Origin: a virus
Taxonomy: Duplodnaviria > Caudoviricetes
Direction: 5' to 3' (one strand)
Virus record (IMG/VR): IMGVR_UViG_3300022920_000008
Span: 1-58,146 of that record
DNA: 58,146 nucleotides
Made by a program: the position numbers and the translations under genes. Below the pieces are notes generated by a model. It was not told where the DNA came from. It made no database searches and saw only the letters and a list, made by a program, of their open reading frames with translations. Positions 16,459-58,146 of the stretch are shown here, in pieces. Position 1 is the stretch's first letter. Every line of letters starts with the position of its first letter.

Positions 16459-19400
16459 TCAACTTACTGGACCAAGTATTGGAAGATGTGGTACTGGATC
16501 TTTAATGCTTACCCATGGATACATATCTGTTGCTAAAATTGATGCGTCTGAAATGTCAATAATTTGTGTGCCAGCAGCGTGTTCAAGTGCAATTGATCCA
16601 CCATGTCCACGTTGTACATTTTGTAAAGTATTGCCTATAACGGCGGTGTACGATATAATTTCACCGTTTATAAATGCAATTCCGCCATCAGGTCTAGTAT
16701 TAAACATACTACTATCTGCGACAGTTATAATGTTATCTGCTTTACTTATACTATTACTTATAGTAGAAGTTTCACTAACTGTCAACTCAAAAACAGCAGC
16801 CGTATTATCTAATCCAGTAATATAAACATGCACTGTTGAATTACTGTCTACAACATCTCCTGATGTATTTGTATTGACTGTAATACTAACAGCTTCTCTA
16901 ATTAGAGCAGCAAAATTCATTCTACGTAAATTACTTGTCTCAATACTAAAGTTGCCTGGGTCTAGGAATTTTCCGCCATATGCAAGTCCCTCAGTATCAG
17001 TAAATGATCCACCAGTTACTATGTCAGCATTTGTATCTGTAAATGTTGAAGAGTATACATCTAGTGTATCAATTACGCCATCTGTCAGTTGCCAACCTGT
17101 CCAATTATCTGTAGGACTATCGTGGTATTTAACTGTAATAGATTTACTACTATTCTGTGAATCGTCCATACTTAGGTTAAATTTTTCACTAATACGACTT
17201 ATATCAACTTGTGATTTAATTTTTGTATGGAATGGTTTAATATCATTAATATACCCTTGTAATACATCAATGTTACCTTTATAGTATCTGCGTGGCAACT
17301 TGGTAGTATTATTTGAAGTTGCAATATTAGTATCTACATTTAACTTAATATAAGTTGTCTTATAGAACCAATCTACTTGGTTATGTATACTTGCAATGTA
17401 ATGTACCATACCAAAGAACATTTTGTTAAAGTTAACTAGGTATGATTCAATAAACAGATCTTCGCGACATGATTGTATAATCCAACTCATAAACTGACTT
17501 GGATCAAAGTCCCAAATGCCTTCCCAAGATTGCATGTCCCAGTTGAACAATGTATTAATGTTCCACACTAGGTCATTAAATTCGATAGTTGCAAATGTTT
17601 TTTCCATTAAAACCCATTCGCCTTCAATTAGATAATAAGTTTCATCACTAATACGTTTGCTTTGCGAATTAAATCCTGAATTTAAAAGTACAACTTCATG
17701 CTGTGTTTTATCAACTTGTTCTAATTCAGCTTTTGAAGCAACCGTAATACTAGGTCTTAAATCTTCTGTCTTCAATGGGTTAACGTATGATGTCCATTGC
17801 CATGTAAGGTTCATATCCCAACCAGCATCTTGGTACCATTCAGTGCCACTGTTTCTATATAATATTTCTGTTTCTGTATTATAATAACTATTGTATTGTA
17901 CTGGGAATTCAGTTCCAGAATACTCTGTAGGTGATGCTAGAGAGTCATCTGTTCTCCAAATTCTTCCGTCCCAAATATAAAGTACGTTTGTATCTGTATT
18001 TGTGAATGTATCACCTGGTTGATATATAATTGGGAATGTAGTATCAAGTTTTGCATTAGTTGGAATTGTGTAGAAAGTTTTAGTAATAATTCTATTCCAT
18101 TTATTTGCTAAATTGTCTACTAAGTTCTGATTTTTTAACAAGCTATTGATAATACTAATTGCTTCACGTCTAGCATCTTTTGTATCTTTAAACCATGCTT
18201 GGCTGTGCTTGCGTCCAGGATAGATATATTCAAAGCTTCTGTTATCGCCATAGCGATTGTATGGATGTAAGATTGGATCTGGAAGAATATTTCCAGTTTC
18301 TTTCTGTACACCAACCAAGTTATCGTTAAGTGCGGTGTAATAGTAGTCAGGAATTAAGTCGCTGCCCTCACTAATATTAGTCCATGAACTGTGTCCAATT
18401 CCCTGTGGCTTAATATTAAGTTGTGCAACAGTTGTACTATCTGTTATATATTGTTTAACACTATTCATAATTAGTTGCGTTGAACTTACTGCTGCCACCC
18501 AACTAATACCATTTGCACTTGGATCAGAAATAATTCTACTAATATCAAATGCAGATAATGTTCTGCCGTTGCTACTAATAGTTATTTTGTTTTTAACCCA
18601 GAAGTAATATACACTATCGTATCTATTAAAATTATCATTCCAGTATGTTTCTTCTGTATAATAATCCAAGAACACGGCACTAGCATTATCAAACACTCTG
18701 TATGCTTCGCCTGATGCTGGAGATCCAAATTGATCATTTCCAGCTTTAACTTCGTCAGCCCAGCTCTCTGGCGTTACTGATGACTTTATCCATTCATAAA
18801 CATCAATACTTGATCCAGGAATTTGTTTGCCCCACATCTTACTTGCATATGCTGCATCGCCTTGTTTGTAGTCATAATAGAAAACACTTGATGTATCCCA
18901 CCAACGCTTGCCTACATGCTCATCGCCCCAAGCACTTCTTTGATTTGTATCATATGCTGTGTCGCTACTCATGTTATACACGGCAACATCTGTTGGATAT
19001 CTAAAGTCAATTTCTTTTTCTGCAATGCCAGGAATAATACCTTGAATCGGATCGTATACTTCTAATTCTCTAATTGTTTTTTGTGTCTCGCCATTGTATA
19101 GTTTGACATTTTCAAAACCAGTGTTGTCTACTGATGTAGATATATTTCTAAGTAATGTTACTTCACCTGCATTGTATTCCCAAACAGCACTACCTTGATC
19201 ATAATTTGATGCCCACAAAATGTCGCCATCTTTAAAGTTATAGTTTACGGTGTCAGCAATTGCAATACGCATTGCAGCTTCATTAGCAAAACGTGCATTA
19301 CGAATAATAAATATTTCTTCAGCACGTCCGCTGTCTTCAATATATCTATCAATATAAAAAGCTGCTGGATCCTGTGTATCTAATGATGTAACTTCATGTA

Positions 19401-22400
19401 TGCCATCAGTCGTTGGCAATGTAGTTGAATTTAAAATCATAACAAAGTCGCCTGCACGAACATTATGCGGTGAACTCAATCCCTCAAAACTCTTTAGTGT
19501 AACTTTTGCATCGTTACCATCAGTACTTGTATCGCCTGCATCAATCTCTGCCCAACGTGTTGTGCGTTGTGTGTTTAAAACATTCCAGCTGTTAGCACGA
19601 GTAATTGTAGATCCATCTTTGATGTTAATATCGTTTAGTACCCATGTACTAACTAGTGCATCGTCTGTAGCACTTACGTTTGTCCAATCACTTAAATTAA
19701 ATTCAGCAGGTGGGAAATTTCCAACTCCCTGTATACCTGTTGATATACCAGCTTCTTGATTAAAATCATTGTCGCCTAAATCTAAAGTTGGTCCAACTGA
19801 TACTAATTTACTAATTACAATTCGGTTATTAATAATTTCTACAGTTACGCCTGTAATATTTCTTTCTGTAATTTGTGTTACTACTTCAGCTGCGGTAGAT
19901 GGTCTAGGATCAATATTAGTTGGCCCAATATTATAAACTCCAGCAATTCCAAATACATTAGAGTTATCTGTAATAGTCATTATACTACCTGCAGATAAAC
20001 CAGCTTCTACACTTAATTTTGCAATCTCTAGATTATTTCCTGATGTGGCACTAATAGCATATTCATCAATACCGTTTGTAGTTAAATAGTTGTCAATAAA
20101 GTTTACAATGTAACTAATATCCATTGGAGTTGGCGTTGCTTCTAAAACATATTGTGGACTATACGTACCTGGTACTATGTTTGTTATTGTAGTTCCGTCG
20201 CCATCAATAGTCATTGCTACTTCAATATCTTTTCTAATAATAATTTTATTAGTAAGAGTTATTTCCGTATCAACATTAGGCACTAAATTAATAGCCGCAG
20301 CTAATTGCTCAGTAGTTAATGTAACTTTAGTTAACACAGTTACTGGCAACATTTCAAATGTGATAGTTGCACTTTCTAAATTAGTCATTGGTCGTACAAT
20401 TGGTAATCCATTTTCATCGATGTCATCAATCTCAACAGTTAATAACTGTTCTGCATAACTTATAATTCCAATATCACTTGTAACTTGATCAACACCTGCT
20501 GGTACTGTAAATGAGAATACGGTAGTTGATCCATCTCCTGTAAATGTTTGTGTTTGATCTGGAACCTCTTGTAAATTAAATATCTCAGAACCATAATCTT
20601 CCAATAGTATATCTGTATTATCAATTGTTAATGTTAAGTTACGTACATCTGCGTTCTGATCATGTTGAACTAATTGTTCACTGTAAGGCAACCCGTTGTT
20701 ATATTTTGTAGTATCTAATACACTAGTAGGAACAATGTTACTGACTGTAATATTAATTCCGTCTATTCCAATAGTAAATTGGTTAGCTACTTGATTAATA
20801 ATAGTGTTGCCTGTTGCTGTAATGTTTGGGAAAGTTGTTGTAGTTCTATCCCACCAGAAACTATGTCCTTCAATGATTGCACTTGGTACTGGATCTGAAG
20901 CATTACGATAACTAAAGTCAGTATTACTAATATTCACAGTACCAGTTTCAGTAATAAGGTCATTGAACGGATTATAGGCTAACTTGTCAATGGCTAATTT
21001 AAATTTCGAACCATTGTATCTAACTTCTTCTCCATGGTTATATGATTTTGTATTACTCCAAGTTTCCACGGCGGCAAAATCAGTTGTGTAATTATTATAT
21101 ATTTGATCTATCTCTAATACATTTTGAATAATATAATCATGCTCAGTGTCTAATACATCTCCACCTTTTCTAATTTGTGTTACTAGTGGTCTAGTTTCAA
21201 CAGGGAATGAAAAGTCTGATTTTTTATTTACAAATACATTGCTTATGTCTGATAAGTTAATTAGTACGTTGTCATTTTCTAACATACTATCGTTGATAAT
21301 TAATTCGATAGCTTCGCTTCTAGTATTATCACCAAACTGCGATGATTTAAACATCCAATCTTCTGTTACATTAACTGTGCTTGTTCCTCTGTTAACTGTG
21401 TTGCCGCGATTAAATTTATCAACACTATTGTTTGTGCCTTTGTGACGCAAAACGCCTTGCATAAACTTATTGATAACATTGTCTGGCAGATCTAATTGTT
21501 TTATCCAATCCTGTGCATGTATACCTAATGTGATTCTTTCAGCACTATGGATATCTTTATTAAACTTAGTTACATTAAAATCATAAAGATCACTCATGCT
21601 ATCCGCAACTGTATCAAAGTTTTGTATGATTGTATTTTCGCCAATCAAATATCCTGGTGCTGACTTAGATCCATCAAATGCTGATGTACGTTGTCCTACA
21701 ATTTTAAATCTACGCTGGCGTAAACTTGTTATTGGATTAAAAATTGTCTCGTTAAATTGTGTCTTGTTATTAAATAATACACTATGATAATATCTTGTTA
21801 GTGCAAGATTTAAACTTACAACACGTCCTGAATTTACATTATTTGTTACAGTGTCTGCACTTTGTATTGAACCAATTTGTGTTTGGCTATTTGAAATTGT
21901 ACTTGAACTAATAACAGATACAATGCCTTCGCTTGGCTCTGCAGCTAATGGGTTAGTACCCTGTGGGTGTATTGTCAATTGATTAGCAATTCTAGTAATA
22001 CATAAATCACCAAAGTCGCCTTGTGTAATATTGCCATTTTCATCCATGATCATAATATCATTTGATCCACCTGGCAAACTATTGAAAGGCAAAACTGAAT
22101 GTGTTGTGCTTGTAAATGTAACTGTTGATGTTACTTTAGTTTCAAATGTCTGGTCTAAGTCTGAAACTACTGCCCATGCAGCAAATTCATTTGCACGCCC
22201 TAGTCCTGATACTTTAGTTGTATCTAGACCATACGATGTTAAGTATTCGTAGTAGCCTCTGATAAAATCATACACGCCTTGTATACGTGCTATTTTTGTT
22301 CCAAATTTCATTACACTTGCAGTTGTATTAAATGCATTATACTTTTTAATACTTACACCGTCTGCAATTTCAACTAAGTTAAAATCAAACTGTTGTGTCT

Positions 22401-25400
22401 CTAATGGTTCATAAAATAAGAATTCTTGCCTATGGTTACTATATCCATCTACAATATATCCACTGTCTGTTTTTTTAATTTTGATATCACTTACCAACAA
22501 TAATAGTTCAGGTAACCCGCCTGCCATTGTTATTTGATAATCTCTAACACCCAAAGTATATCTTCCGTTTGTTCCACTTTCAGATTTAATCTTAATTAAA
22601 TTCTTATCTGTAAATCCATTAAGTGGCTGTAGTAAGCGGGTGCTTAATGAATTAAACGTTGATCCAATAACTTCGCTATTTCTATTTCTTTGGTTAGAAT
22701 TATATAATACTTGGTCAATACCAAGGTTATACTTAAAGTTTTCTCTAAGTGTTACACTAAATCCTATTGATGGCCAAACTTTAAATCCTTCAGCACTTAC
22801 TGGAGGTGTATATGAATCAGGATAAACAAGTGTTACATTTGGTGTGCTTGTATAGCCACTGCCTGCTCGTATAACAGACAAGCTTAAAATATTACCATTG
22901 CTGTCTAAATTAATGTCAGCTAACGCCGTTACTTTTTCATCTGTTCCAATAATACTAACACGAGTACCTTCTGGAATTTGTCCAGTTTGGTGTGTTACTT
23001 TAATATTTTGTACTTGCTTGCCATATGTACTGCCGTGATATGTAAGTCTCTTGTTTGAGAATTGAGTTTTATCTAAGTTATTAATCATACTTAAATCAAC
23101 AGTTTGTGTATCATGGAAGTAACCAGGCTGGAATACTGCTGGCGCAGTTCTTGCTGGGTTAAGTTTTATTACTGCATCAATCGTTGCTGCTTGACCTAGT
23201 GGTGATTGTCTCCACTCGTACTCAGTTGGTCCCCAGTCACCAAATACAAATGGTTTATATTTTTCTAATGGCGTACCTAATACTGTGCTTATTTCTTCTA
23301 GAGTTCCATCTGCTTTAACTGGACATTTAGAAGCCCAATCCCAACTACTACGCATAAACATTAATCTTTGTTTAACAGGCGTACCTGGCTCACTAATAAT
23401 ACCGTACTCTAATGCATTTAGTAATGCTGCACGTTTTATACTATCAGTCCAACTGTAATGTGTATTCCACCAGGTTGGCTTAATAGCAAATCCTAACATA
23501 TTCCAAGGAGTAAGGTGCGGGATACATGTACCAAATAACATATGGTAAATACCTTTCCAATGCCCTGGTGCTTCTTGTTCTTCAAACTTTCCTGGTAAAA
23601 CTATGCCAGTGTAATTCCAAGTTTTATCATCGGTTGGATCGTAATAATTCTCTGATTGTAAATCTGTATTTCCAGTTTTTGTTTGCCAATCCATAAAGAA
23701 TCTTTCAACATATTCGTCCATAGTAGTATGTGTATACCATAATGAATGATTCATTGTTGGCATAAAATGCGTTGCGTCAGTTAAGTGATCTACTTTTTTA
23801 TTGATGCCGTTCCAAACTTTCTTTTCAATATCATACAGTACAGCAAGTACTGGATTATAGTTTGGACCAAAAATATCATCTGGGTCATTTGTAGATGCAT
23901 CACTAAAATCAATAGTATAACCATCGTGACAATATAGTACATTATCAATAATTTGTGGACGTACTAAATTTGCAAGACCTAATTTTGTAATACTTGCAGG
24001 AATATAACTATCTTCTAGGCTTCCATGATTATATACTTCCACTCGAACATTTGTATCACCACTTGTGAATGGAACAAAAGAAGCATTAACTGTCAGCATA
24101 CCATTTGATATTGTATACTCATCATCACGCTTTAGCAAACGCTGTATACCATTATTATTTCCAATTGCATTGTCTATAAGATAAACATTAATATGATCCA
24201 CGCTAAATGTATCTTCATCATAATTAAACTTAGTTATAAAACTTTGTCCAACTGTATCATATATAAAGTCTTGTTTAACTGTAGTATCTTTAAATAACAT
24301 ACTTGATTTTTTATGCAGTTGGCTACCAATTTGTCCACTAATTAAAACGTCCAACACATCATTAACTAGCGCACGGGTGCTAGTATAACTGTTTGTCTTG
24401 TATAGTTTTTTTGCATGCGATACTACTCTTTTGCGTAAACTCCACCATTCAGTTGCTTGGTTTTTTAGTGCTTCTGTTAAATCAATATTATAGTCTACAG
24501 TAGTGTAGTCTTGTATAATGCTTGCCCCGTCACTAATATAAATTTCGCCACCAATGTTATTAATTTTAGGAATGATATCGTAATTATTTTTACCAGTTGG
24601 AGATCCGTGGAACCCAGGTTGATTTGCAATTAAACTTTTCCAGTGTGCTGATGTTTCACTAATAGTAAACTCAATAATTCTTTCATTACTTGGATTGTGA
24701 TTTAAAATTCTTGGCTGTGTAGTTACACTATTGTTATCCACATACTGAACATCAATAATAAACTCATCGCCTTCTCCTAATTGATCTGCTTTAATTACAA
24801 TTTGATCATCTTGTCTTTCAACAATATCTACATTGGTGCTGTCAATTAAAACTTTATCAGCCAGGTCTAATTGTTGTCCATTTGAATAAACTTTTAAGTG
24901 TGTGCTATCAATAATATCTTTACTAGCACTGATAATTTTATTTTTTCTGGTGCCATCTGTATAGAACATTACATATCCAGTATCATCTGGCAATGTAACT
25001 TCCCAAACATTGGGGCGTGAAGGGTGAGGAGCAAATGTAGCTTGACTACCTGGATCGATAAAACTCAAACTTTGATCTGGACTACAATCTTTAAATTCAT
25101 GAGTAACGTTTTGTTCTAACATTAGGGTTGCAGTAACTTGTGTGTTATAAGTTTTATTGTTAATTACTTTTGTTACGGCTAGTTCATCTAAAGCTTTAAA
25201 GTAGTCATAATAAACATCAGGCTTCCAAGATGATTTTGGAAGAGGGACAACGATATCTTCTGTTCCATTTCCAACAACTTGTACTTTACTTGATGACTGT
25301 AATGGGAAGTCACTAGCTACATAGTTTGCAGCTATACGTTCACCTCGACCATAGTTTGCATAATAGTTTCCTAGTATTTTAGTTTCAGTATTATTTTGCT

Positions 25401-26928
25401 TTTCCAAGTATGTATAACGTTCTGTATCAATAACGTTTTCTAATACATGCTCGCTTTTAACACCTGATGTACTTATAACTGGAGCAAATCCTAATTCAGG
25501 ATCAACAGTGCCAGTTCCAATTTTATATCCAAATACACGGTTACCAGTAAATGTAGTATTGTTATACGTACTTAAAAGGGTGCCCATGTGGTCGCTAAGT
25601 TCAAACAATGGCATATCGCCCTGGCTTGTTTTTGTTTGTGCTAATACTAGAACATCATCCTGCCAATAGTAATCGTGGAATCTGTGTATAGCATCTACAT
25701 TATAGTAGTCTTCTCCCACTGTAAAGTAATGTCCGTTAGTTAATGTAGCGCCAGCAATTGGAATAATTTGGTTGCCACTAACTTCAAAAATCTTATTAAA
25801 TGATGATTGTGTGTCTGTGTTTTTTATAACTACAGTGTCGCCAGTAGACAGTCCATGTTGTCCTGCTAAGTAATATCCATCATTTGGTAGTTGCACACCA
25901 GTTTCAAGTAATTTACTACTGATTAAATAATCAACCACGCCGTGATTGATATCATAACCGTAGTTATAAAGTTGCAAGTTTCTATCAAATTGAATGATTG
26001 GACGTTTGGCTCTACGACCTTCATTGCCCCAATCAGATATATTAAAACTATCATCAGCGGTTTGCATTTCTTCTAATGCACTATGATGAATCCAACGATT
26101 GGCACGAGTCCAACTTGATTTATATTTGTCATCTAAACTACATACTGTATAATGTTTGTCTTCATAAGGAAGTGTTTTGCCACTTACTTTGCTAGCATGC
26201 GGAGATGCATAATACATTTCTTTAATTGGTATGAATTTAATTTTATTCCCAACGCCTGCTACAATATAACTAGTTGCTTGGATATTAGTATCGTAACCAG
26301 TTCCTTTAAATTCTAATCTCATGCCATTCCATAATTGCATTTGTTTTACAACAACTGTGTTGTTTATAACTACTTCATAAGGAATAGTGGCAGTAATACG
26401 GTTTGTTAAATCTGTTACAGGATTATAATTAGTATCAGTATTGTTTACTATCAACGCTGGTCCCATACCACTAGCCCAATAATAGTTGTTATAATTAACT
26501 AGTTTATCAATGTCAACTGGTGGATTAAAAACATATGTTCTTGTACTATATGCTGAGTTATAATCGTATTCGTTAAATTCAATATCTACTTTGTCTTTAA
26601 TTTGATTCCAACTAATGTGTTTGTTAACACTGCTATCGTCGTTTGATGAATATATAGTAGGCTGTAAATGTCTAAGGTTAACTGTATCTAAATATACATC
26701 ACTAATACTATTAACAGTATTGCCATCTTGGCTACCAACAAAGTGATCTACATCTTCAAGTTTGCCTTTGCTAATCATTAGATCCATGGTGCCATCTAAC
26801 CATTTGTCATTTAAGTCACTTCTAAATACTCCTGGTAGGAATGTACTAGACTTGATATTCTTAATAACTGATTGCCCTGGACTTGTCTTCATAAGGGGCG
26901 TGTTGATTTTATTAGGCTTAAAAGGCAT
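16459..26928 (-). CDS. giant baseplate wedge protein (gp7-like), 3489 aa
   Basis: Directly follows the gp6-like gene; FLPGVFRS N-terminus, DIDKLVNYNNYYW and near-C-terminal INDIKPFHTKIK motifs. Confidence 0.7.
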   Translation of the reverse strand: MPFKPNKINTPLMKTSPGQSVIKNIKSSTFLPGVFRSDLNDKWLDGTMDLMISKGKLEDVDHFVGSQDGNTVNSISDVYLDTVNLRHLQPTIYSSNDDSSVNKHISWNQIKDKVDIEFNEYDYNSAYSTRTYVFNPPVDIDKLVNYNNYYWASGMGPALIVNNTDTNYNPVTDLTNRITATIPYEVVINNTVVVKQMQLWNGMRLEFKGTGYDTNIQATSYIVAGVGNKIKFIPIKEMYYASPHASKVSGKTLPYEDKHYTVCSLDDKYKSSWTRANRWIHHSALEEMQTADDSFNISDWGNEGRRAKRPIIQFDRNLQLYNYGYDINHGVVDYLISSKLLETGVQLPNDGYYLAGQHGLSTGDTVVIKNTDTQSSFNKIFEVSGNQIIPIAGATLTNGHYFTVGEDYYNVDAIHRFHDYYWQDDVLVLAQTKTSQGDMPLFELSDHMGTLLSTYNNTTFTGNRVFGYKIGTGTVDPELGFAPVISTSGVKSEHVLENVIDTERYTYLEKQNNTETKILGNYYANYGRGERIAANYVASDFPLQSSSKVQVVGNGTEDIVVPLPKSSWKPDVYYDYFKALDELAVTKVINNKTYNTQVTATLMLEQNVTHEFKDCSPDQSLSFIDPGSQATFAPHPSRPNVWEVTLPDDTGYVMFYTDGTRKNKIISASKDIIDSTHLKVYSNGQQLDLADKVLIDSTNVDIVERQDDQIVIKADQLGEGDEFIIDVQYVDNNSVTTQPRILNHNPSNERIIEFTISETSAHWKSLIANQPGFHGSPTGKNNYDIIPKINNIGGEIYISDGASIIQDYTTVDYNIDLTEALKNQATEWWSLRKRVVSHAKKLYKTNSYTSTRALVNDVLDVLISGQIGSQLHKKSSMLFKDTTVKQDFIYDTVGQSFITKFNYDEDTFSVDHINVYLIDNAIGNNNGIQRLLKRDDEYTISNGMLTVNASFVPFTSGDTNVRVEVYNHGSLEDSYIPASITKLGLANLVRPQIIDNVLYCHDGYTIDFSDASTNDPDDIFGPNYNPVLAVLYDIEKKVWNGINKKVDHLTDATHFMPTMNHSLWYTHTTMDEYVERFFMDWQTKTGNTDLQSENYYDPTDDKTWNYTGIVLPGKFEEQEAPGHWKGIYHMLFGTCIPHLTPWNMLGFAIKPTWWNTHYSWTDSIKRAALLNALEYGIISEPGTPVKQRLMFMRSSWDWASKCPVKADGTLEEISTVLGTPLEKYKPFVFGDWGPTEYEWRQSPLGQAATIDAVIKLNPARTAPAVFQPGYFHDTQTVDLSMINNLDKTQFSNKRLTYHGSTYGKQVQNIKVTHQTGQIPEGTRVSIIGTDEKVTALADINLDSNGNILSLSVIRAGSGYTSTPNVTLVYPDSYTPPVSAEGFKVWPSIGFSVTLRENFKYNLGIDQVLYNSNQRNRNSEVIGSTFNSLSTRLLQPLNGFTDKNLIKIKSESGTNGRYTLGVRDYQITMAGGLPELLLLVSDIKIKKTDSGYIVDGYSNHRQEFLFYEPLETQQFDFNLVEIADGVSIKKYNAFNTTASVMKFGTKIARIQGVYDFIRGYYEYLTSYGLDTTKVSGLGRANEFAAWAVVSDLDQTFETKVTSTVTFTSTTHSVLPFNSLPGGSNDIMIMDENGNITQGDFGDLCITRIANQLTIHPQGTNPLAAEPSEGIVSVISSSTISNSQTQIGSIQSADTVTNNVNSGRVVSLNLALTRYYHSVLFNNKTQFNETIFNPITSLRQRRFKIVGQRTSAFDGSKSAPGYLIGENTIIQNFDTVADSMSDLYDFNVTKFNKDIHSAERITLGIHAQDWIKQLDLPDNVINKFMQGVLRHKGTNNSVDKFNRGNTVNRGTSTVNVTEDWMFKSSQFGDNTRSEAIELIINDSMLENDNVLINLSDISNVFVNKKSDFSFPVETRPLVTQIRKGGDVLDTEHDYIIQNVLEIDQIYNNYTTDFAAVETWSNTKSYNHGEEVRYNGSKFKLAIDKLAYNPFNDLITETGTVNISNTDFSYRNASDPVPSAIIEGHSFWWDRTTTTFPNITATGNTIINQVANQFTIGIDGINITVSNIVPTSVLDTTKYNNGLPYSEQLVQHDQNADVRNLTLTIDNTDILLEDYGSEIFNLQEVPDQTQTFTGDGSTTVFSFTVPAGVDQVTSDIGIISYAEQLLTVEIDDIDENGLPIVRPMTNLESATITFEMLPVTVLTKVTLTTEQLAAAINLVPNVDTEITLTNKIIIRKDIEVAMTIDGDGTTITNIVPGTYSPQYVLEATPTPMDISYIVNFIDNYLTTNGIDEYAISATSGNNLEIAKLSVEAGLSAGSIMTITDNSNVFGIAGVYNIGPTNIDPRPSTAAEVVTQITERNITGVTVEIINNRIVISKLVSVGPTLDLGDNDFNQEAGISTGIQGVGNFPPAEFNLSDWTNVSATDDALVSTWVLNDINIKDGSTITRANSWNVLNTQRTTRWAEIDAGDTSTDGNDAKVTLKSFEGLSSPHNVRAGDFVMILNSTTLPTTDGIHEVTSLDTQDPAAFYIDRYIEDSGRAEEIFIIRNARFANEAAMRIAIADTVNYNFKDGDILWASNYDQGSAVWEYNAGEVTLLRNISTSVDNTGFENVKLYNGETQKTIRELEVYDPIQGIIPGIAEKEIDFRYPTDVAVYNMSSDTAYDTNQRSAWGDEHVGKRWWDTSSVFYYDYKQGDAAYASKMWGKQIPGSSIDVYEWIKSSVTPESWADEVKAGNDQFGSPASGEAYRVFDNASAVFLDYYTEETYWNDNFNRYDSVYYFWVKNKITISSNGRTLSAFDISRIISDPSANGISWVAAVSSTQLIMNSVKQYITDSTTVAQLNIKPQGIGHSSWTNISEGSDLIPDYYYTALNDNLVGVQKETGNILPDPILHPYNRYGDNRSFEYIYPGRKHSQAWFKDTKDARREAISIINSLLKNQNLVDNLANKWNRIITKTFYTIPTNAKLDTTFPIIYQPGDTFTNTDTNVLYIWDGRIWRTDDSLASPTEYSGTEFPVQYNSYYNTETEILYRNSGTEWYQDAGWDMNLTWQWTSYVNPLKTEDLRPSITVASKAELEQVDKTQHEVVLLNSGFNSQSKRISDETYYLIEGEWVLMEKTFATIEFNDLVWNINTLFNWDMQSWEGIWDFDPSQFMSWIIQSCREDLFIESYLVNFNKMFFGMVHYIASIHNQVDWFYKTTYIKLNVDTNIATSNNTTKLPRRYYKGNIDVLQGYINDIKPFHTKIKSQVDISRISEKFNLSMDDSQNSSKSITVKYHDSPTDNWTGWQLTDGVIDTLDVYSSTFTDTNADIVTGGSFTDTEGLAYGGKFLDPGNFSIETSNLRRMNFAALIREAVSITVNTNTSGDVVDSNSTVHVYITGLDNTAAVFELTVSETSTISNSISKADNIITVADSSMFNTRPDGGIAFINGEIISYTAVIGNTLQNVQRGHGGSIALEHAAGTQIIDISDASILATDMYPWVSIKDPVPHLPILGPVS

Positions 26929-54959: not shown

Positions 54960-56054
54960 ATGGCGCATGCAATCGACCAACTCCTAAGTTCAGAAGTTTT
55001 AAGTGAAGAAGTTCGCACAACACTTTCAGAAGCATGGGAAACTAAGCTTGTGGAGGCACGTGAGGAAATTACAGCAACACTACGTGAAGAGTTCGCTAAT
55101 AGATATGAATCAGATAAGACGCAGATGGTGGAAGCACTAGACGCAATGCTTAATGATACAATCAAAGCAGAACTTGTAGAGTTTGCTGAAGATAAGAAAG
55201 CAGCAGTAGAAGCAAAAGTTGAATACAACAGTAAGCTAAAAGAACATGCAGCTATTCTAGATCAGTTCGTAATGGAAACCTTGAAAAAGGAAATTAAAGA
55301 ATTACGTGATGATCGTCAACTTCAAGAACAAAACTTCGGGAAGCTAGAAGATTTCGTAATGGAACAACTAACTTCAGAACTTAACGAATTCCACCAAGAC
55401 AAACAAGAACTAATTGCAGAGAAAGTTCGTCTAGTGAAAGAAGGTAAAGAAATGATTGCTGAAACTAAACGTGAATTTATTGACAGAGCAAGTGGCAAAC
55501 TAGCAAGTATTGTTGAATCAACACTAACTGGTGAACTACACACTCTTAAAGAAGACATTCAACTTGCAAAAGAAAATATGTTTGGTCGTAAGATCTTTGA
55601 AACATTTGCAGCTGAATTTATGAGTTCACACTTAGCAGAAGGCACACAAGTTTCTAAGCTATCACAGGAATTACTAACGATGAAAACTGCATTAGCAGAA
55701 TCAACGAAAGTAGTTGCTGAAAAAGAGGCGCTGATTGAATCAGCAGCTAAAAAGGCATCACGCATTGCAGACGCAAGTCAACGCAAAGCAAAAATTGATG
55801 AACTTTTAAGTCCTCTTGCAAAAGACAAACGTGAATTGATGACAAACCTACTTGAAAGTGTTGCAACTGTAAAGTTACAAGCAGCATATAACAAGTATTT
55901 GCCAACAGTGTTAAACGAAACAGTAAAAACACAAAATTCACAAACATTAAATGAATCTCAGAAGACTGAGATCACAGGTAACAAGGTGAGCACACAGGAG
56001 ACTGAAAGCGAAGCCAAGATTATTAACCTAAAAAAATTAGCTGGTATCAAATAA
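54960..56054 (+). CDS. gp22: prohead core scaffold gp22-like
   Basis: Coiled-coil, E/K-rich; between protease and MCP; C-terminal LKKLAGI. Confidence 0.8.
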   Translation: MAHAIDQLLSSEVLSEEVRTTLSEAWETKLVEAREEITATLREEFANRYESDKTQMVEALDAMLNDTIKAELVEFAEDKKAAVEAKVEYNSKLKEHAAILDQFVMETLKKEIKELRDDRQLQEQNFGKLEDFVMEQLTSELNEFHQDKQELIAEKVRLVKEGKEMIAETKREFIDRASGKLASIVESTLTGELHTLKEDIQLAKENMFGRKIFETFAAEFMSSHLAEGTQVSKLSQELLTMKTALAESTKVVAEKEALIESAAKKASRIADASQRKAKIDELLSPLAKDKRELMTNLLESVATVKLQAAYNKYLPTVLNETVKTQNSQTLNESQKTEITGNKVSTQETESEAKIINLKKLAGIK

Positions 56055-56069
56055 TAAGGAGAATACCAA

Positions 56070-57233
56070 ATGTCACAGAATCTATTTGAAAACTGGGGTG
56101 TAACTAAAGACGCTCTAACAGATGGTCTAGCAGGCAACAAAAAGGTTGTAATGGAGTCAGTTCTAGAAAACACTAAGAGCTATCTTTCAGAAACCGCTGC
56201 AGCAGGCACATCAATGGCTGGCAATATTGCCACAATGAATAAAGTAATCCTACCGGTAATCCGTCGTGTTATGCCAACGGTTATTGCTAACGAACTAGTA
56301 GGCGTTCAGCCTATGACTGGCCCAGTAGGCCAAATCCATACACTACGTGTACGTTACTCAGAAACAGCAGCTGGCGCAACAGCTGGTGATGAAGCACTAA
56401 GCCCATTTGCAATTGCAAAAGGTTACTCAGGTGACGCAGCAACTGGTGGTCCAGCAGCTACTTCTTCTCTAGAAGCAGAAGCAGGCCGTAAGCTTTCAAT
56501 TCAAGTATTGAAGCAAACAGTTGAAGCGAAAACACGTAAACTATCAGCACGTTGGACATTCGAAGCGGCGCAAGACGCTAACTCAATGCACGGTCTAGAC
56601 GTTGAAGCAGAAATCATGCAAGCACTTGCACAAGAAATTACTGCTGAAATCGACCAAGAAGTTCTAACATCACTACGCACTCTAGCAGGCGCAGTAACAG
56701 ATACATACGACCAAGGCAACGTATCAGGTCAAGCAACTTTCGTTGGTGACCAACACGCAGCACTAGCAGTTCTAATCAACAGAGCGGCTAACCTAATTGC
56801 AACACGCACACGTCGTGGCGCAGGTAACTACGTAGTAGTATCACCAACAATGCTAACTGTTCTACAGTCAGCAACAACATCAGCATTTGCTCGTACAACA
56901 GAAGGTCCTTTCGAGGCTCCAACTAACACGAAATTTGTTGGTACACTAAACAATACAGTACGTGTATTTGTAGACCAGTATGCAGCAGACGATGCTCCAG
57001 TACTAGTTGGCTATAAAGGTGACGGCGAAATGGATGCAGCTGCGTTCTATTGCCCATACATCCCGCTAATGTCTTCAGGCACAGTACTAGATCCAGCAAC
57101 GTTCGAACCAACAGTGTCATTCATGACACGTTACGGTTATGTAGAGCTAAACAACCAAGCTTCATCACTTGGTAATGCGGCAGACTACCTAGCTAAAATT
57201 GGCGTTGATGCGACAGCACTATCATTCCAGTAA
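56070..57233 (+). CDS. gp23: major capsid protein gp23-like (compact, 387 aa)
   Basis: VGVQPMTGP.GQI..LR, VEAKTRKL.A.WT.E.AQD....HG.D.EAE, FYCPYIPL, FMTRYG. Confidence 0.96.
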   Translation: MSQNLFENWGVTKDALTDGLAGNKKVVMESVLENTKSYLSETAAAGTSMAGNIATMNKVILPVIRRVMPTVIANELVGVQPMTGPVGQIHTLRVRYSETAAGATAGDEALSPFAIAKGYSGDAATGGPAATSSLEAEAGRKLSIQVLKQTVEAKTRKLSARWTFEAAQDANSMHGLDVEAEIMQALAQEITAEIDQEVLTSLRTLAGAVTDTYDQGNVSGQATFVGDQHAALAVLINRAANLIATRTRRGAGNYVVVSPTMLTVLQSATTSAFARTTEGPFEAPTNTKFVGTLNNTVRVFVDQYAADDAPVLVGYKGDGEMDAAAFYCPYIPLMSSGTVLDPATFEPTVSFMTRYGYVELNNQASSLGNAADYLAKIGVDATALSFQ

Positions 57234-57257
57234 GAACTTACTAGAATACATAAACAT

Positions 57258-57288
57258 AAAACAGGATCTTCGGATCCTGTTTTTTTTT
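57258..57288 (+). terminator. intrinsic terminator after MCP
   Basis: ACAGGATC-TTCG-GATCCTGT followed by a T run. Confidence 0.92.
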
Positions 57289-57308
57289 ACTTTTTTTTAA
57301 AAAAAGGC

Positions 57309-57337
57309 TTGACATTAGTGTCAAGATGTACTATATT
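57309..57337 (+). promoter_or_regulatory. sigma70 promoter TTGACA-17-TATATT
   Basis: Consensus spacing; the -35 lies in the palindrome CTTGACA-ttag-TGTCAAG (57308-57325). Confidence 0.8.
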
Positions 57338-57368
57338 AAGTACATAAGCTAAACGACGGTTTAGATTA

Positions 57369-57548
57369 GATAGTGCAAGGAAATGTCGTTTCGTAAGGAC
57401 GATAACTTGGCTAGTAGCTGTAGTGGCAGCGTATGAGCATGGAGACATGAAGATACGTAGATTCAAACGTAACTGTTTGATACTAGGCGCAACTGAATGT
57501 ATGAAATACTTACTAGGTTGTTGGAGGTAGACTGTAATCCTCCCTATC
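57369..57548 (+). ncRNA. candidate structured ncRNA (~180 nt)
   Basis: Closing GATAG/CTATC stem, multibranch junctions, GTAA and GAGA tetraloops, own promoter. Confidence 0.65.
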
Positions 57549-57678
57549 ACTTTATATTAAGTACAGAAGCAATTAGAAAGATTTTAACATGTCAAATACT
57601 ACATCATATATATTAGGATGGCCGCCAAGAGATTGGGGAATGTTTTGACGTGACTTTTTAATAAAAGTTATTTTAAGC

Positions 57679-57713
57679 AAGCCCCTAGTGTTAATTCATT
57701 AGGGGCTTTTTTT
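57679..57713 (+). terminator. intrinsic terminator
   Basis: AAGCCCCTAGTG-ttaatt-CATTAGGGGCTT followed by a T run. Confidence 0.8.
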
Positions 57714-57715
57714 AT

Positions 57716-57789
57716 AAGCACACTATGTCCCACTGCAATGGGAAGTTTTGCAGAACATAGATCCCGAAAGGATTGAAGTTAGTGTGTTT
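57716..57789 (+). ncRNA. candidate small pseudoknotted RNA
   Basis: 10-bp outer stem; TCCCA/TGGGA hairpin whose loop CTGCAA is complementary to TTGCAG; GAAA-capped hairpin. Confidence 0.45.
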
Positions 57790-57798
57790 TTAAAAAAT

Positions 57799-57872
57799 GA
57801 GGGTGTAGTGAAATGGTATCACGCTGGTCTCCAAAACCAGAAGCAGGAGTTCGATTCTCCTCACCTTTGCCA
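57799..57872 (+). tRNA. trnW: tRNA-Trp(CCA)
   Basis: Cloverleaf; anticodon arm CTGGT-ctCCAaa-ACCAG; GTTCGA T-loop; encoded CCA. Confidence 0.92.
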
Positions 57873-57882
57873 AATATAAAGC

Positions 57883-57958
57883 GGGCCGGTAGCTCAGTTG
57901 GTAGAGCAACTGACTTTTAATCAGTAGGTCTCGGGTTCGAACCCCGACCGGCTCACCA
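57883..57958 (+). tRNA. trnK: tRNA-Lys(TTT)
   Basis: Canonical 76-nt cloverleaf; ACTGA-ctTTTaa-TCAGT; CCA end. Confidence 0.96.
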
Positions 57959-57968
57959 CTATAATAAC

Positions 57969-58044
57969 ACTCCTCTAGCTCAATGGTTAGAGCAGAACGC
58001 TCATAACGTTTTGGTTACAGGTTCGAGTCTCTCCACCTATGCCA
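57969..58044 (+). pseudogene. chimeric/pseudo tRNA with CAT anticodon (Met/Ile2-type 5' part)
   Basis: D and anticodon arms are intact, but the T stem (ACAGG/CTCTC) and acceptor stem (ACTCCTC/CACCTAT) do not pair; still ends in GCCA. Confidence 0.75.
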
Positions 58045-58048
58045 ATTA

Positions 58049-58125
58049 CTCGGATTAGCGCAGTCTGGCAGCGCATCTGCTTTGGGAGCAGAGGGTCGTA
58101 GGTTCGAATCCTACATCCGAGACCA
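58049..58125 (+). tRNA. trnP: tRNA-Pro(TGG)
   Basis: CTCGGAT/ATCCGAG acceptor stem; TCTGC-ttTGGga-GCAGA; CCA end. Confidence 0.95.
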
Positions 58126-58146
58126 AAATAAAAATAAAAAACTTGC

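Follow-up and report, generated by a model that had tools for sequence, protein, structure and literature searches.

A divergent manA-family RNA, probably a free-standing gene, in an uncultivated marine T4-related jumbo myovirus

According to the part of the original report available to us, the manA RNA motif was described in 2010 as a riboswitch candidate and was placed in 5' untranslated regions (UTRs) (Weinberg 2010, PMC2864571). Its canonical copies, collected in Rfam family RF01745, are carried by cyanophages and precede metabolic genes. The accessible text of a July 2026 bioRxiv preprint (10.64898/2026.07.01.735769) reports cryo-electron microscopy (cryo-EM) of RNAs of this family which, once refolded with 10 mM MgCl2, assemble in vitro into RNA-only decamers and octamers and into a T=1 cage of 60 subunits, and that text gives no biological context for them. 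The assemblies it describes are pentamer-based, with one construct using the intermolecular kissing loops L5-L7' and L8-L9', a second class joined by an L3-L8' contact together with an L6 GNRA-receptor contact, and peripheral helices and interfaces that differ between members. Here we describe a manA-like RNA encoded at positions 57344-57557, plus strand, of a 58,146-nt stretch of viral DNA (hereafter the window), which is the whole of IMG/VR record IMGVR_UViG_3300022920_000008 (estimated completeness 16%). The reading that we prefer, at a probability of about 0.7, is that this divergent manA RNA of an uncultivated marine T4-related jumbo myovirus is a small free-standing gene of its own, whose product likely self-associates.

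Two other kinds of phage RNA bear comparison. The pRNA belongs to small podoviruses, where it binds the portal of the packaging motor, and its loop sequences differ between related phages yet stay complementary; to our knowledge, T4-type phages package their DNA without a pRNA-like RNA. T4 has, in its tRNA region, the stable small RNAs species 1 and 2 (rnaC/rnaD), to which no function has been assigned. As for manA itself, no ligand, in vivo role or occurrence in jumbo phages was found in the literature searched, whose scope left out subscription journals and supplements, and manA as a whole word is absent from the reviews PMC10043782 and PMC5473149. The present locus supplies a context for the family, namely a large manA clade in jumbo phages other than cyanophages, which threshold-based Rfam annotation misses and in which the RNA comes with a conserved promoter and, in most copies, a terminator of its own.

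Family membership and fold

An Rfam 15 scan of the whole window at curated thresholds returned five matches, four to tRNA and one to manA. The manA match takes in 57349-57553 and the entire model (positions 1-192 of 192); it scores 56.7 bits, above the cut-off of 55.2, with E 7.7e-12 for the window as a whole. The margin of just 1.5 bits counts against the assignment, as canonical copies score 182-184 bits (184.1 in P-SSM4 and 181.6 in P-SSM2), and independent support was therefore sought. A covariance model, R1, was built solely from an alignment, A3, of the window RNA and 56 unique uncultivated IMG/VR relatives (57 sequences). R1 finds the canonical manA RNAs full length at their Rfam coordinates, both in P-SSM4 (34.3 bits, E 4e-10) and in P-SSM2 (27.1 bits, E 2e-7). 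Because RF01745 matches the window and R1 finds the P-SSM4 and P-SSM2 copies, membership holds both ways, and by these sequence comparisons 57344-57557 is a distant member of the manA family. The features of the RNA are the following, with helices (P) and loops (L) numbered as inferred from the Rfam consensus.

57299..57337, +: promoter with an A-tract (57299-57305), -35 hexamer TTGACA (57309-57314), 17-nt spacer and -10 hexamer TATATT (57332-57337), agreeing with the consensus at 11 of 12 positions
57344..57557, +: manA-family RNA of nine helices (RF01745 at 57349-57553; R1 at 57344-57557, 216.1 bits)
57349..57364, +: P1, hairpin with a GACG loop that is common to canonical manA; in A3, 5 of 6 pairs show two-sided changes
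57369-57373 with 57544-57548, +: P2, closing stem GATAG/CTATC, enclosing P3, P4, P8 and P9
57376-57409, +: P3, CAAG/CTTG enclosing a GUAA-capped hairpin (loop CGUAA)
57411-57416 with 57481-57486, +: P4, CTAGTA/TACTAG, closing a three-way junction
57417-57427, +: P5, 3 bp, GCU/GGC, loop GUAGU (57420-57424)
57429-57458, +: P6, covarying, with a GAGA loop (57442-57445)
57463-57480, +: P7, covarying, with loop CGUAACUG (57468-57475)
57490..57520, +: P8, a 5-bp outer stem (CAAC/GTTG region), internal loops and an inner GUA/UAC hairpin with loop UGAAA (57502-57506); in A3, each of the 5 outer pairs shows two-sided changes
57523..57543, +: P9, GGAGG/CCUCC with an 11-nt L9 (57528-57538); in A3, 2 of 5 pairs show two-sided changes

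The manA architecture is thus present in the window RNA, with P1, a closing stem around P3, the P4-closed junction of P5 to P7, P8 and P9. So are the family signatures: the GACG loop of P1, AGUG after the closing stem, the GNRA loop of P6 and the GGUA..AAUCC of P9/L9, which is conserved and agrees with the Rfam consensus, are all shared with the nine-helix canonical RNAs of P-SSM4 and P-SSM2, and UAA and CAC are present as well, the former following the P3 hairpin and the latter the closing stem.

Folded as a single sequence the RNA is unexceptional (minimum free energy -55.1 kcal/mol, z = -1.60), with 8 of 200 shuffles folding as well. In A3, 94.6% of the cells are paired, compared to 32-45% when the partners are slid by 1-3 columns, and both sides change in 30 of 61 pairs, values that none of 500 shuffles reached. 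P2, outer P3 and P5 are invariant in A3, and P4 varies solely between U-G and U-A at one pair. Every pair of P2, outer P3, P4 and P5 changes on both sides in A4, an alignment of 24 rows with divergent and canonical copies added, in which 49 of 55 pairs show both-side changes and 95.0% of cells are paired (32-44% when slid); A4 was fitted to the structure of the model, though, and favours that structure, which must be held against these figures. The structure goes beyond chance because of the Rfam E-value, the covariation in A3 and the conservation of the promoter, and not because of the single-sequence fold.

Promoter-like sites as such are not in excess in this region (2 seen, 2.9 +/- 1.6 expected in shuffles). 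Across the 57 copies the pattern TTGACN-16/17-TANNNT is kept in 55, with a spacer of varying sequence, the exceptions being L156, whose contig ends there, and L119, which has no promoter. The sequence TACATAA is conserved in the subfamily at the position expected for the start, and the 5' end of the window RNA would lie within it, at about 57344, 7 nt past the -10 hexamer. Canonical manA, for which 96 unique copies were scored with identical scripts, likewise has a consensus promoter that puts the start just before P1 (TTGACA-17-TATAAT in P-SSM2 and P-SSM4).

A first-pass annotation, made from the bare sequence, had pictured a promoter-driven, compact multibranched phage non-coding RNA of about 180 nt. 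The sigma70 promoter and all the helices that it listed are present, and the picture as a whole is borne out by the covariation and by the promoter of the relatives; the search for homologues with covarying pairs that it had proposed gave the 56 relatives and their both-side changes. The length has to be corrected, the folded unit measuring about 205-214 nt (57344/57349 to 57553/57557). Its GCTG/CAGC stem exists, but covariation assigns G57429 and C57430 to outer P6 and leaves P5 with the 3-bp GCU/GGC. It was right that the RNA is not a tRNA, transfer-messenger RNA (tmRNA) or RNase P RNA, as the Rfam scan agrees, and that no credible open reading frame (ORF) is found on the plus strand, where none over the RNA is longer than 39 aa; none is credible on either strand.

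The relatives were collected with an exact 17-base core from P4/P5, which was found in at least 119 IMG/VR stretches. Together with all loci, this search gave 106 full-length occurrences in 66 unique stretches, ten of which were dropped before A3 as non-RNA (seven coding stretches and three chance matches), so that the subfamily counts at least 56 unique relatives in IMG/VR. None of 21 distinct A3 relatives scanned reaches the Rfam threshold, and six of the relatives score 36.6-47.9 bits with RF01745; because none of the 21 passes, such a clade would escape routine annotation. In a second set, fetched by the capsid protein and made up of 80 IMG/VR loci and 4 named-phage loci, blastn found a homologue of the RNA right after the capsid gene in 17 of 84 loci, and R1 found the RNA in 25 of the 80 IMG/VR loci, including divergent copies at 58-80 bits.

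Capsid and RNA do not diverge in step in this material. Three loci with a capsid protein 89-90% identical to that of the window carry a much more divergent RNA (L012 5309-5521, L011 3130-3339 and L035 4299-4512, the last on the opposite, minus strand; 71-80 bits with R1). Among relatives with 74-77% capsid identity the RNA scores up to 242 bits with R1, above some relatives closer in their capsid. Judging from these comparisons, the RNA module seems to move between phages without being tied to the capsid gene.

Loop-loop contacts

As far as the accessible text of the preprint describes them, the interface loops named in the cryo-EM work have counterparts in the subfamily that show complementarity and covariation. 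The Rfam consensus, P-SSM2 and P-SSM4 all have complementary L5/L7 (consensus UGGU/ACCA) and L8/L9 (CUGU/ACAG). Complementary L5 and L7 are also found in the window RNA. Across A3, four L5-L7 pairs form in 57 of 57 copies (UAGU with ACU(A/G)), one of them being U-A in 43 copies and U-G in 14, among them the window. The other pairs are invariant and there is no covariation within the subfamily, which differs from the canonical UGGU with ACC(A/G) by a compensatory change of G-C to A-U.

In 47 of the 57 copies L8 and L9 form all four central pairs, as AGGA/UCCU in 21, GAGA/UCUC in 13, AUGA/UCAU in 12 and CUGA/UCAG in one, and divergent copies add pairs such as CUGAU/AUCAG and UGGU/ACCA. The covariation score of these loops is 0.498, compared to 0.130 +/- 0.018 in shuffles (0 of 500 as high) and at most 0.147 when slid. 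That the reported interface loops covary in nature argues that the interfaces are under selection.

The window itself departs from this pattern. While canonical L8 CUGU(A) pairs with L9 (U)ACAG, L8 and L9 of the window are not complementary: the window forms 1 of the 4 central pairs, and with its nine closest relatives it makes up a subgroup (10 of 57 copies) that lacks L8-L9 complementarity. L8-L9 complementarity is a peripheral feature of manA, and one that the window does without. In this subgroup L3 (GUAA) and L6 (GAGA) are GNRA loops and L8 is short and purine-rich. Several replacement partners were considered, namely L9 with L5, the GUAA of L9 with UUAC in the internal loop of P8, the GAAA of L8 with UUUC in P3, and L9 with the P1-P2 linker; none was accepted, because each is broken without compensation in the subgroup or is invariant. 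Going by the available text of the preprint, none of the solved constructs is the window RNA and the L8-L9 pair of the 60-mer construct is not found in the window, while P3 (GUAA) and P6 (GAGA) of the window carry loops of GNRA type.

By analogy with the behaviour reported in vitro for other members, the most likely molecular behaviour of the window RNA would be self-association via loop contacts. Three considerations weigh against it: the missing L8-L9 complementarity of the window subgroup; the nature of the covariation, which shows that the loops pair and is equally compatible with an intramolecular pseudoknot and an intermolecular kiss; and the origin of the oligomers, which are known in vitro, for other members, from the accessible part of one preprint.

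A further-reaching proposal, which we put forward tentatively and at well below even odds, is that the RNA acts in trans and assembles with itself: transcribed from a strong promoter of host type, it would build pentamer-based rings or cages in the infected cell. The differing L8/L9 pairs would then be assembly "codes" that keep apart the RNAs of co-infecting phages, as in the pRNA comparison; the window subgroup would have swapped the L8-L9 kiss for GNRA-type contacts and would therefore have a different stoichiometry; and the near-constant place beside head genes would hint at a capsid-linked role or at sequestration of a host factor. The phi29-type pRNA is, according to the text available of PMC4201828, a structured phage RNA of comparable length whose identical molecules join into multimers through intermolecular kissing loops, much as proposed here. 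The likeness is an analogy of mechanism: no pRNA family is found among the 13 matches at E <= 1 in 57200-57800, and the window RNA differs by having a sigma70-type and not a late promoter. The natural interface variants, including the subgroup without the L8-L9 pair, offer material for asking whether assembly happens, and matters, in infection.

A gene of its own or a leader

The proposed sequence of events starts at the near-consensus sigma70-type promoter and its A-rich upstream tract, from which host RNA polymerase would start about 5 nt before P1. T4 early promoters are a model for the timing of transcription early in infection, and by analogy with them this RNA would be transcribed early. 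The RNA of about 210 nt would fold into the nine-helix manA fold and act as a free and stable molecule, not as a switch on a downstream mRNA. In most relatives transcription would end at a terminator 13-21 nt past the RNA; in the window it would continue through a 19-codon ORF to a later terminator. The two features concerned are:

57589..57648, +: micro-ORF of 19 codons, MSNTTSYILGWPPRDWGMF, starting 35 nt past the end of the Rfam match (57553)
57679..57715, +: intrinsic terminator with a 12-bp stem (6 GC pairs) and a T-run, conserved in L141

The main alternative, which we consider unlikely, is a cis-acting leader, a riboswitch or other sensor that controls the 19-codon ORF, and perhaps read-through into the tRNAs, via an unknown ligand. 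It has the family's history on its side, manA being listed as cis-regulatory in Rfam and placed in 5' UTRs by the part of PMC2864571 available to us. No ligand is named in the literature searched. The canonical copies do look leader-like, the one of P-SSM2 ending 16 nt before purL, and an aptamer followed by a terminator, as found in 38-39 of the 57 copies, is the layout of a transcriptional riboswitch. We compared what precedes and follows the two groups, using 94 canonical and 52 subfamily copies for the downstream features.

Promoter just upstream: canonical 68/96, subfamily 55/57
Terminator hairpin within 30 nt: canonical 19/94, subfamily 36/52
Open frame starting within 40 nt: canonical 48/94, subfamily 2/52

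On these counts the canonical copies look like leaders and the jumbo-phage clade looks like an RNA gene.

The terminators of the subfamily themselves speak against a switch. In the 38-39 copies a hairpin (-8 to -14 kcal/mol) with a run of five or more T behind it begins 13-21 nt past the RNA, and its stem differs between clades with the hairpin retained. When the duplex energy of the 5' arm of the terminator with the last 110 nt of the RNA was compared to that of shuffled arms, no antiterminator complementarity was found (mean z -0.02 over 29 combinations, 2 below -2). Nor was a terminator found that competes with aptamer pairing, as in the expression platform of a riboswitch, the hairpins starting 13-21 nt past the closing stem and not overlapping it. 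The sequence GGUAGAC in P9/L9 of the window subgroup was considered as an antiterminator and was rejected as a general feature, being significant only in L178 (z -2.8) and L039 (z -2.1), 2 of the 29.

What lies behind the terminator argues in the same direction. In most relatives it is a GATAAATA motif, which we take to resemble a T4-type late promoter, then the freshwater-2 motif (RF02980), then an ORF of 133-152 aa, so that the gene which usually follows the RNA has a promoter-like motif and a leader motif of its own. That ORF (MGRP...) belongs to no Pfam or PHROGs family in the three proteins tried. Even among close relatives the downstream content differs: it may be the micro-ORF with tRNAs, some other conserved non-coding element, an array of tRNAs or an ORF without a known family, and because of this a sensor would have no constant target. 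In L119 the promoterless RNA is embedded in a tRNA array, with one tRNA ending 16 nt ahead of it and another following, which implies its release as a discrete RNA. In L183 the capsid protein is 100% identical to that of the window, and unrelated DNA follows directly after the RNA, which for this reason appears as a module with sharp borders.

Against a free-standing gene, besides the Rfam class and the purL neighbour of P-SSM2, stand three features of the window: no terminator lies directly behind the RNA or between it and the micro-ORF; the micro-ORF 35 nt downstream is conserved; and one contig from an RNA library bridges 57521-57631, from the 3' part of the RNA into the micro-ORF. For these three reasons the window RNA could serve as a leader here. 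The micro-ORF, judged by its sequence a candidate micropeptide gene, is conserved in L141 (WPxRxWGM kept, an in-frame 3-nt indel, synonymous changes), and the module stands behind only the window copy and the L141/L180 copy, L141 and L180 coming from one contig. A weaker promoter-like site at 57645-57674 overlaps its end. If the RNA were merely a leader, it would be an ordinary new member of a known family. The promoters, the terminators and the changing downstream content argue that, at least in the jumbo-phage manA clade, the RNA is a free molecule and not the leader of an mRNA.

The proposal of the first-pass annotation that this is an uncharacterised phage RNA class, or a self-cleaving ribozyme, we hold to be very improbable. 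The compact multibranched fold with conserved unpaired nucleotides would suit it, as would the failure of the scanned relatives to reach the Rfam cut-off and the outcome of a blastn search of the RNA, which gave no match in 50,697 GenBank phage records and thus no cultured carrier there. The Rfam scan, which the annotation had itself named as the check on novelty, answers the first half with the full-length RF01745 match above threshold, and R1 detects canonical manA in return. As to the second half, none of the 13 matches at E <= 1 in 57200-57800 is to a ribozyme family, those other than manA all lying far below their cut-offs, and the manA members in the accessible text of the cryo-EM preprint (10.64898/2026.07.01.735769) are described as assemblies, not catalysts; nothing in the sequence data speaks for self-cleavage of the manA-like RNA. 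Least probable of all, to the point of being negligible, is that an 87-aa minus-strand ORF (57287-57550), open in 5 of the 57 copies including the window, is the encoded feature and the structure incidental: it is not a gene because 52 of the 57 homologues have in-frame stops, and the substitutions are compensatory in the helices instead of codon-like, with the ORF running antisense across the conserved promoter.

The locus and its neighbours

The order on the plus strand is capsid gene, terminator, A-tract and promoter, RNA, a strong terminator about 125 nt beyond the RNA, and a tRNA cluster; the first-pass annotation had likewise placed the RNA between the terminator of the capsid gene and the tRNAs. 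In addition to the features listed above, these are:

56070..57233, +: gene for a Gp23-type major capsid protein, 387 aa (PF07068, E 5e-100)
about 57258..57291, +: intrinsic terminator of the capsid gene, an 11-bp GC-poor stem followed by a T-run
57799..58125, +: tRNA cluster with Trp, Lys, a weak tRNA-like stretch and Pro

The terminator at 57679..57715 is the probable end of the transcription unit of the window. Sinorhizobium phage Phosso, Pseudomonas phage PA5oct, Vibrio phage 2.275.O, CBB and GAP32, all T4-related jumbo myoviruses, have capsid proteins with 65-70% identity to this one, and the window represents part of the genome of an uncultivated marine phage of that kind. Its RNA therefore sits in the capsid lineage of PA5oct, Vibrio phage 2.275.O and GAP32, in contrast to the cyanophage carriers of canonical manA. 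In 46 of the 57 copies the RNA has a capsid gene no more than 1.8 kb upstream, with a gap of 99-1191 nt, where canonical copies precede metabolic genes; of the 11 copies without it, five have too little upstream sequence to judge. The capsid gene is a conserved neighbour and not part of the RNA gene.

Four whole genomes, those of Vibrio phage 2.275.O, PA5oct, GAP32 and Phosso, contain no RF01745 match at E <= 0.01, in a search validated on P-SSM2 and P-SSM4, and in all four the capsid gene is directly followed by protein-coding genes. The RF01745 search of Syn9 likewise gave no manA. Megablast of 55500-58146 against GenBank phages matched solely in the tRNA stretches (37 records). A scan for a 19-base core in one genome per prokaryote species gave four matches, of which three were rejected as chance 19-22-mers; the fourth carries the RNA (L334), and this 2.6-kb contig, binned in a Bacteroidetes metagenome-assembled genome, is too short for host assignment.

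A tRNA lies within 1.5 kb downstream of the RNA in only 5 of the 57 copies, so the tRNA cluster is a neighbour and no constant partner. The T4 RNAs species 1 and 2 lie by tRNAs, as these five copies do and as L119 does inside its array, and no homology is claimed; most subfamily copies differ from them in lying away from tRNAs, with their own promoter and terminator. Between tRNA-Lys and tRNA-Pro of the window, 57976-58032 gives a weak Rfam tRNA match (30.3 bits, cut-off 29; model positions 8-63 of 71) that ARAGORN does not call, and may be a degenerate or unusual tRNA. The stretch 57716-57795, between the terminator and tRNA-Trp, is conserved in L141 and has no Rfam match; compensatory changes surround ACTGCAAT (TCCC..GGGA in the window vs CCTT..AAGG in L141), with an outer CACACTA..TAGTGTG pairing, and by these it may be a small structured element or the leader of a tRNA precursor.

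The RNA body is covered by contigs of four metatranscriptome libraries from four studies, labelled as seawater, estuary, aquatic and marine metagenome. Such contigs give presence in RNA libraries and not the ends, strand or abundance of a transcript, and the libraries can contain DNA, which limits what this cover adds to the case for a free RNA. The summed contig word depth over the RNA body is about 33,000 in X4 and 560 in X21; X4, X20 and X22 leave the 3' end of the capsid gene uncovered, X21 covers it at 3-6, and from 57558 on the depth is at most 154 in X4. Neither these depths nor their contrast is used as evidence, because contigs cannot rank the parts of a locus, missing cover of a part is no proof of anything, and a conserved RNA gathers contigs of many relatives with differing flanks. 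Loose ends that resemble adapter sequence, at 57359/57360 in X4, allow no interpretation.

Several further elements were seen around the RNA in the relatives. One conserved non-coding element is shared by L183, L119 and L202 (first ~60 nt past the RNA), and a second by L114, L124 and L156, neither with an Rfam match at threshold; an element of the first type is the commonest continuation in the RNA-library contigs, where all 4 runs show it as a loose end past 57549. The freshwater-2 motif (52-77 bits) stands ahead of the MGRP ORF in L055 (5702-5784), L050 (5700-5784), L029 (5556-5639) and L041 (3450-3533), and also in L133, L129 and L111. Between the capsid gene and the manA-like RNA, L055 (5234-5281) and L050 (5236-5282) carry a glutamine riboswitch aptamer (RF01739, 50 and 43 bits). 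In these jumbo phages the region behind the capsid gene forms an island of structured RNAs; the part of PMC9964418 available to us (Table 4) lists wcaG, manA and abiF RNAs clustered within about 800 nt in cyanophage S-CREM1.

Elsewhere in the window, 16459-26928 on the minus strand is a single 3489-aa ORF, with another of 1024 aa after it. In L140, about 10 kb from its manA-like RNA, a permuted (alpha-type) tmRNA was found on the minus strand at 887-1189 (RF01849, 140.6 bits; RF04321, 130.1 bits).

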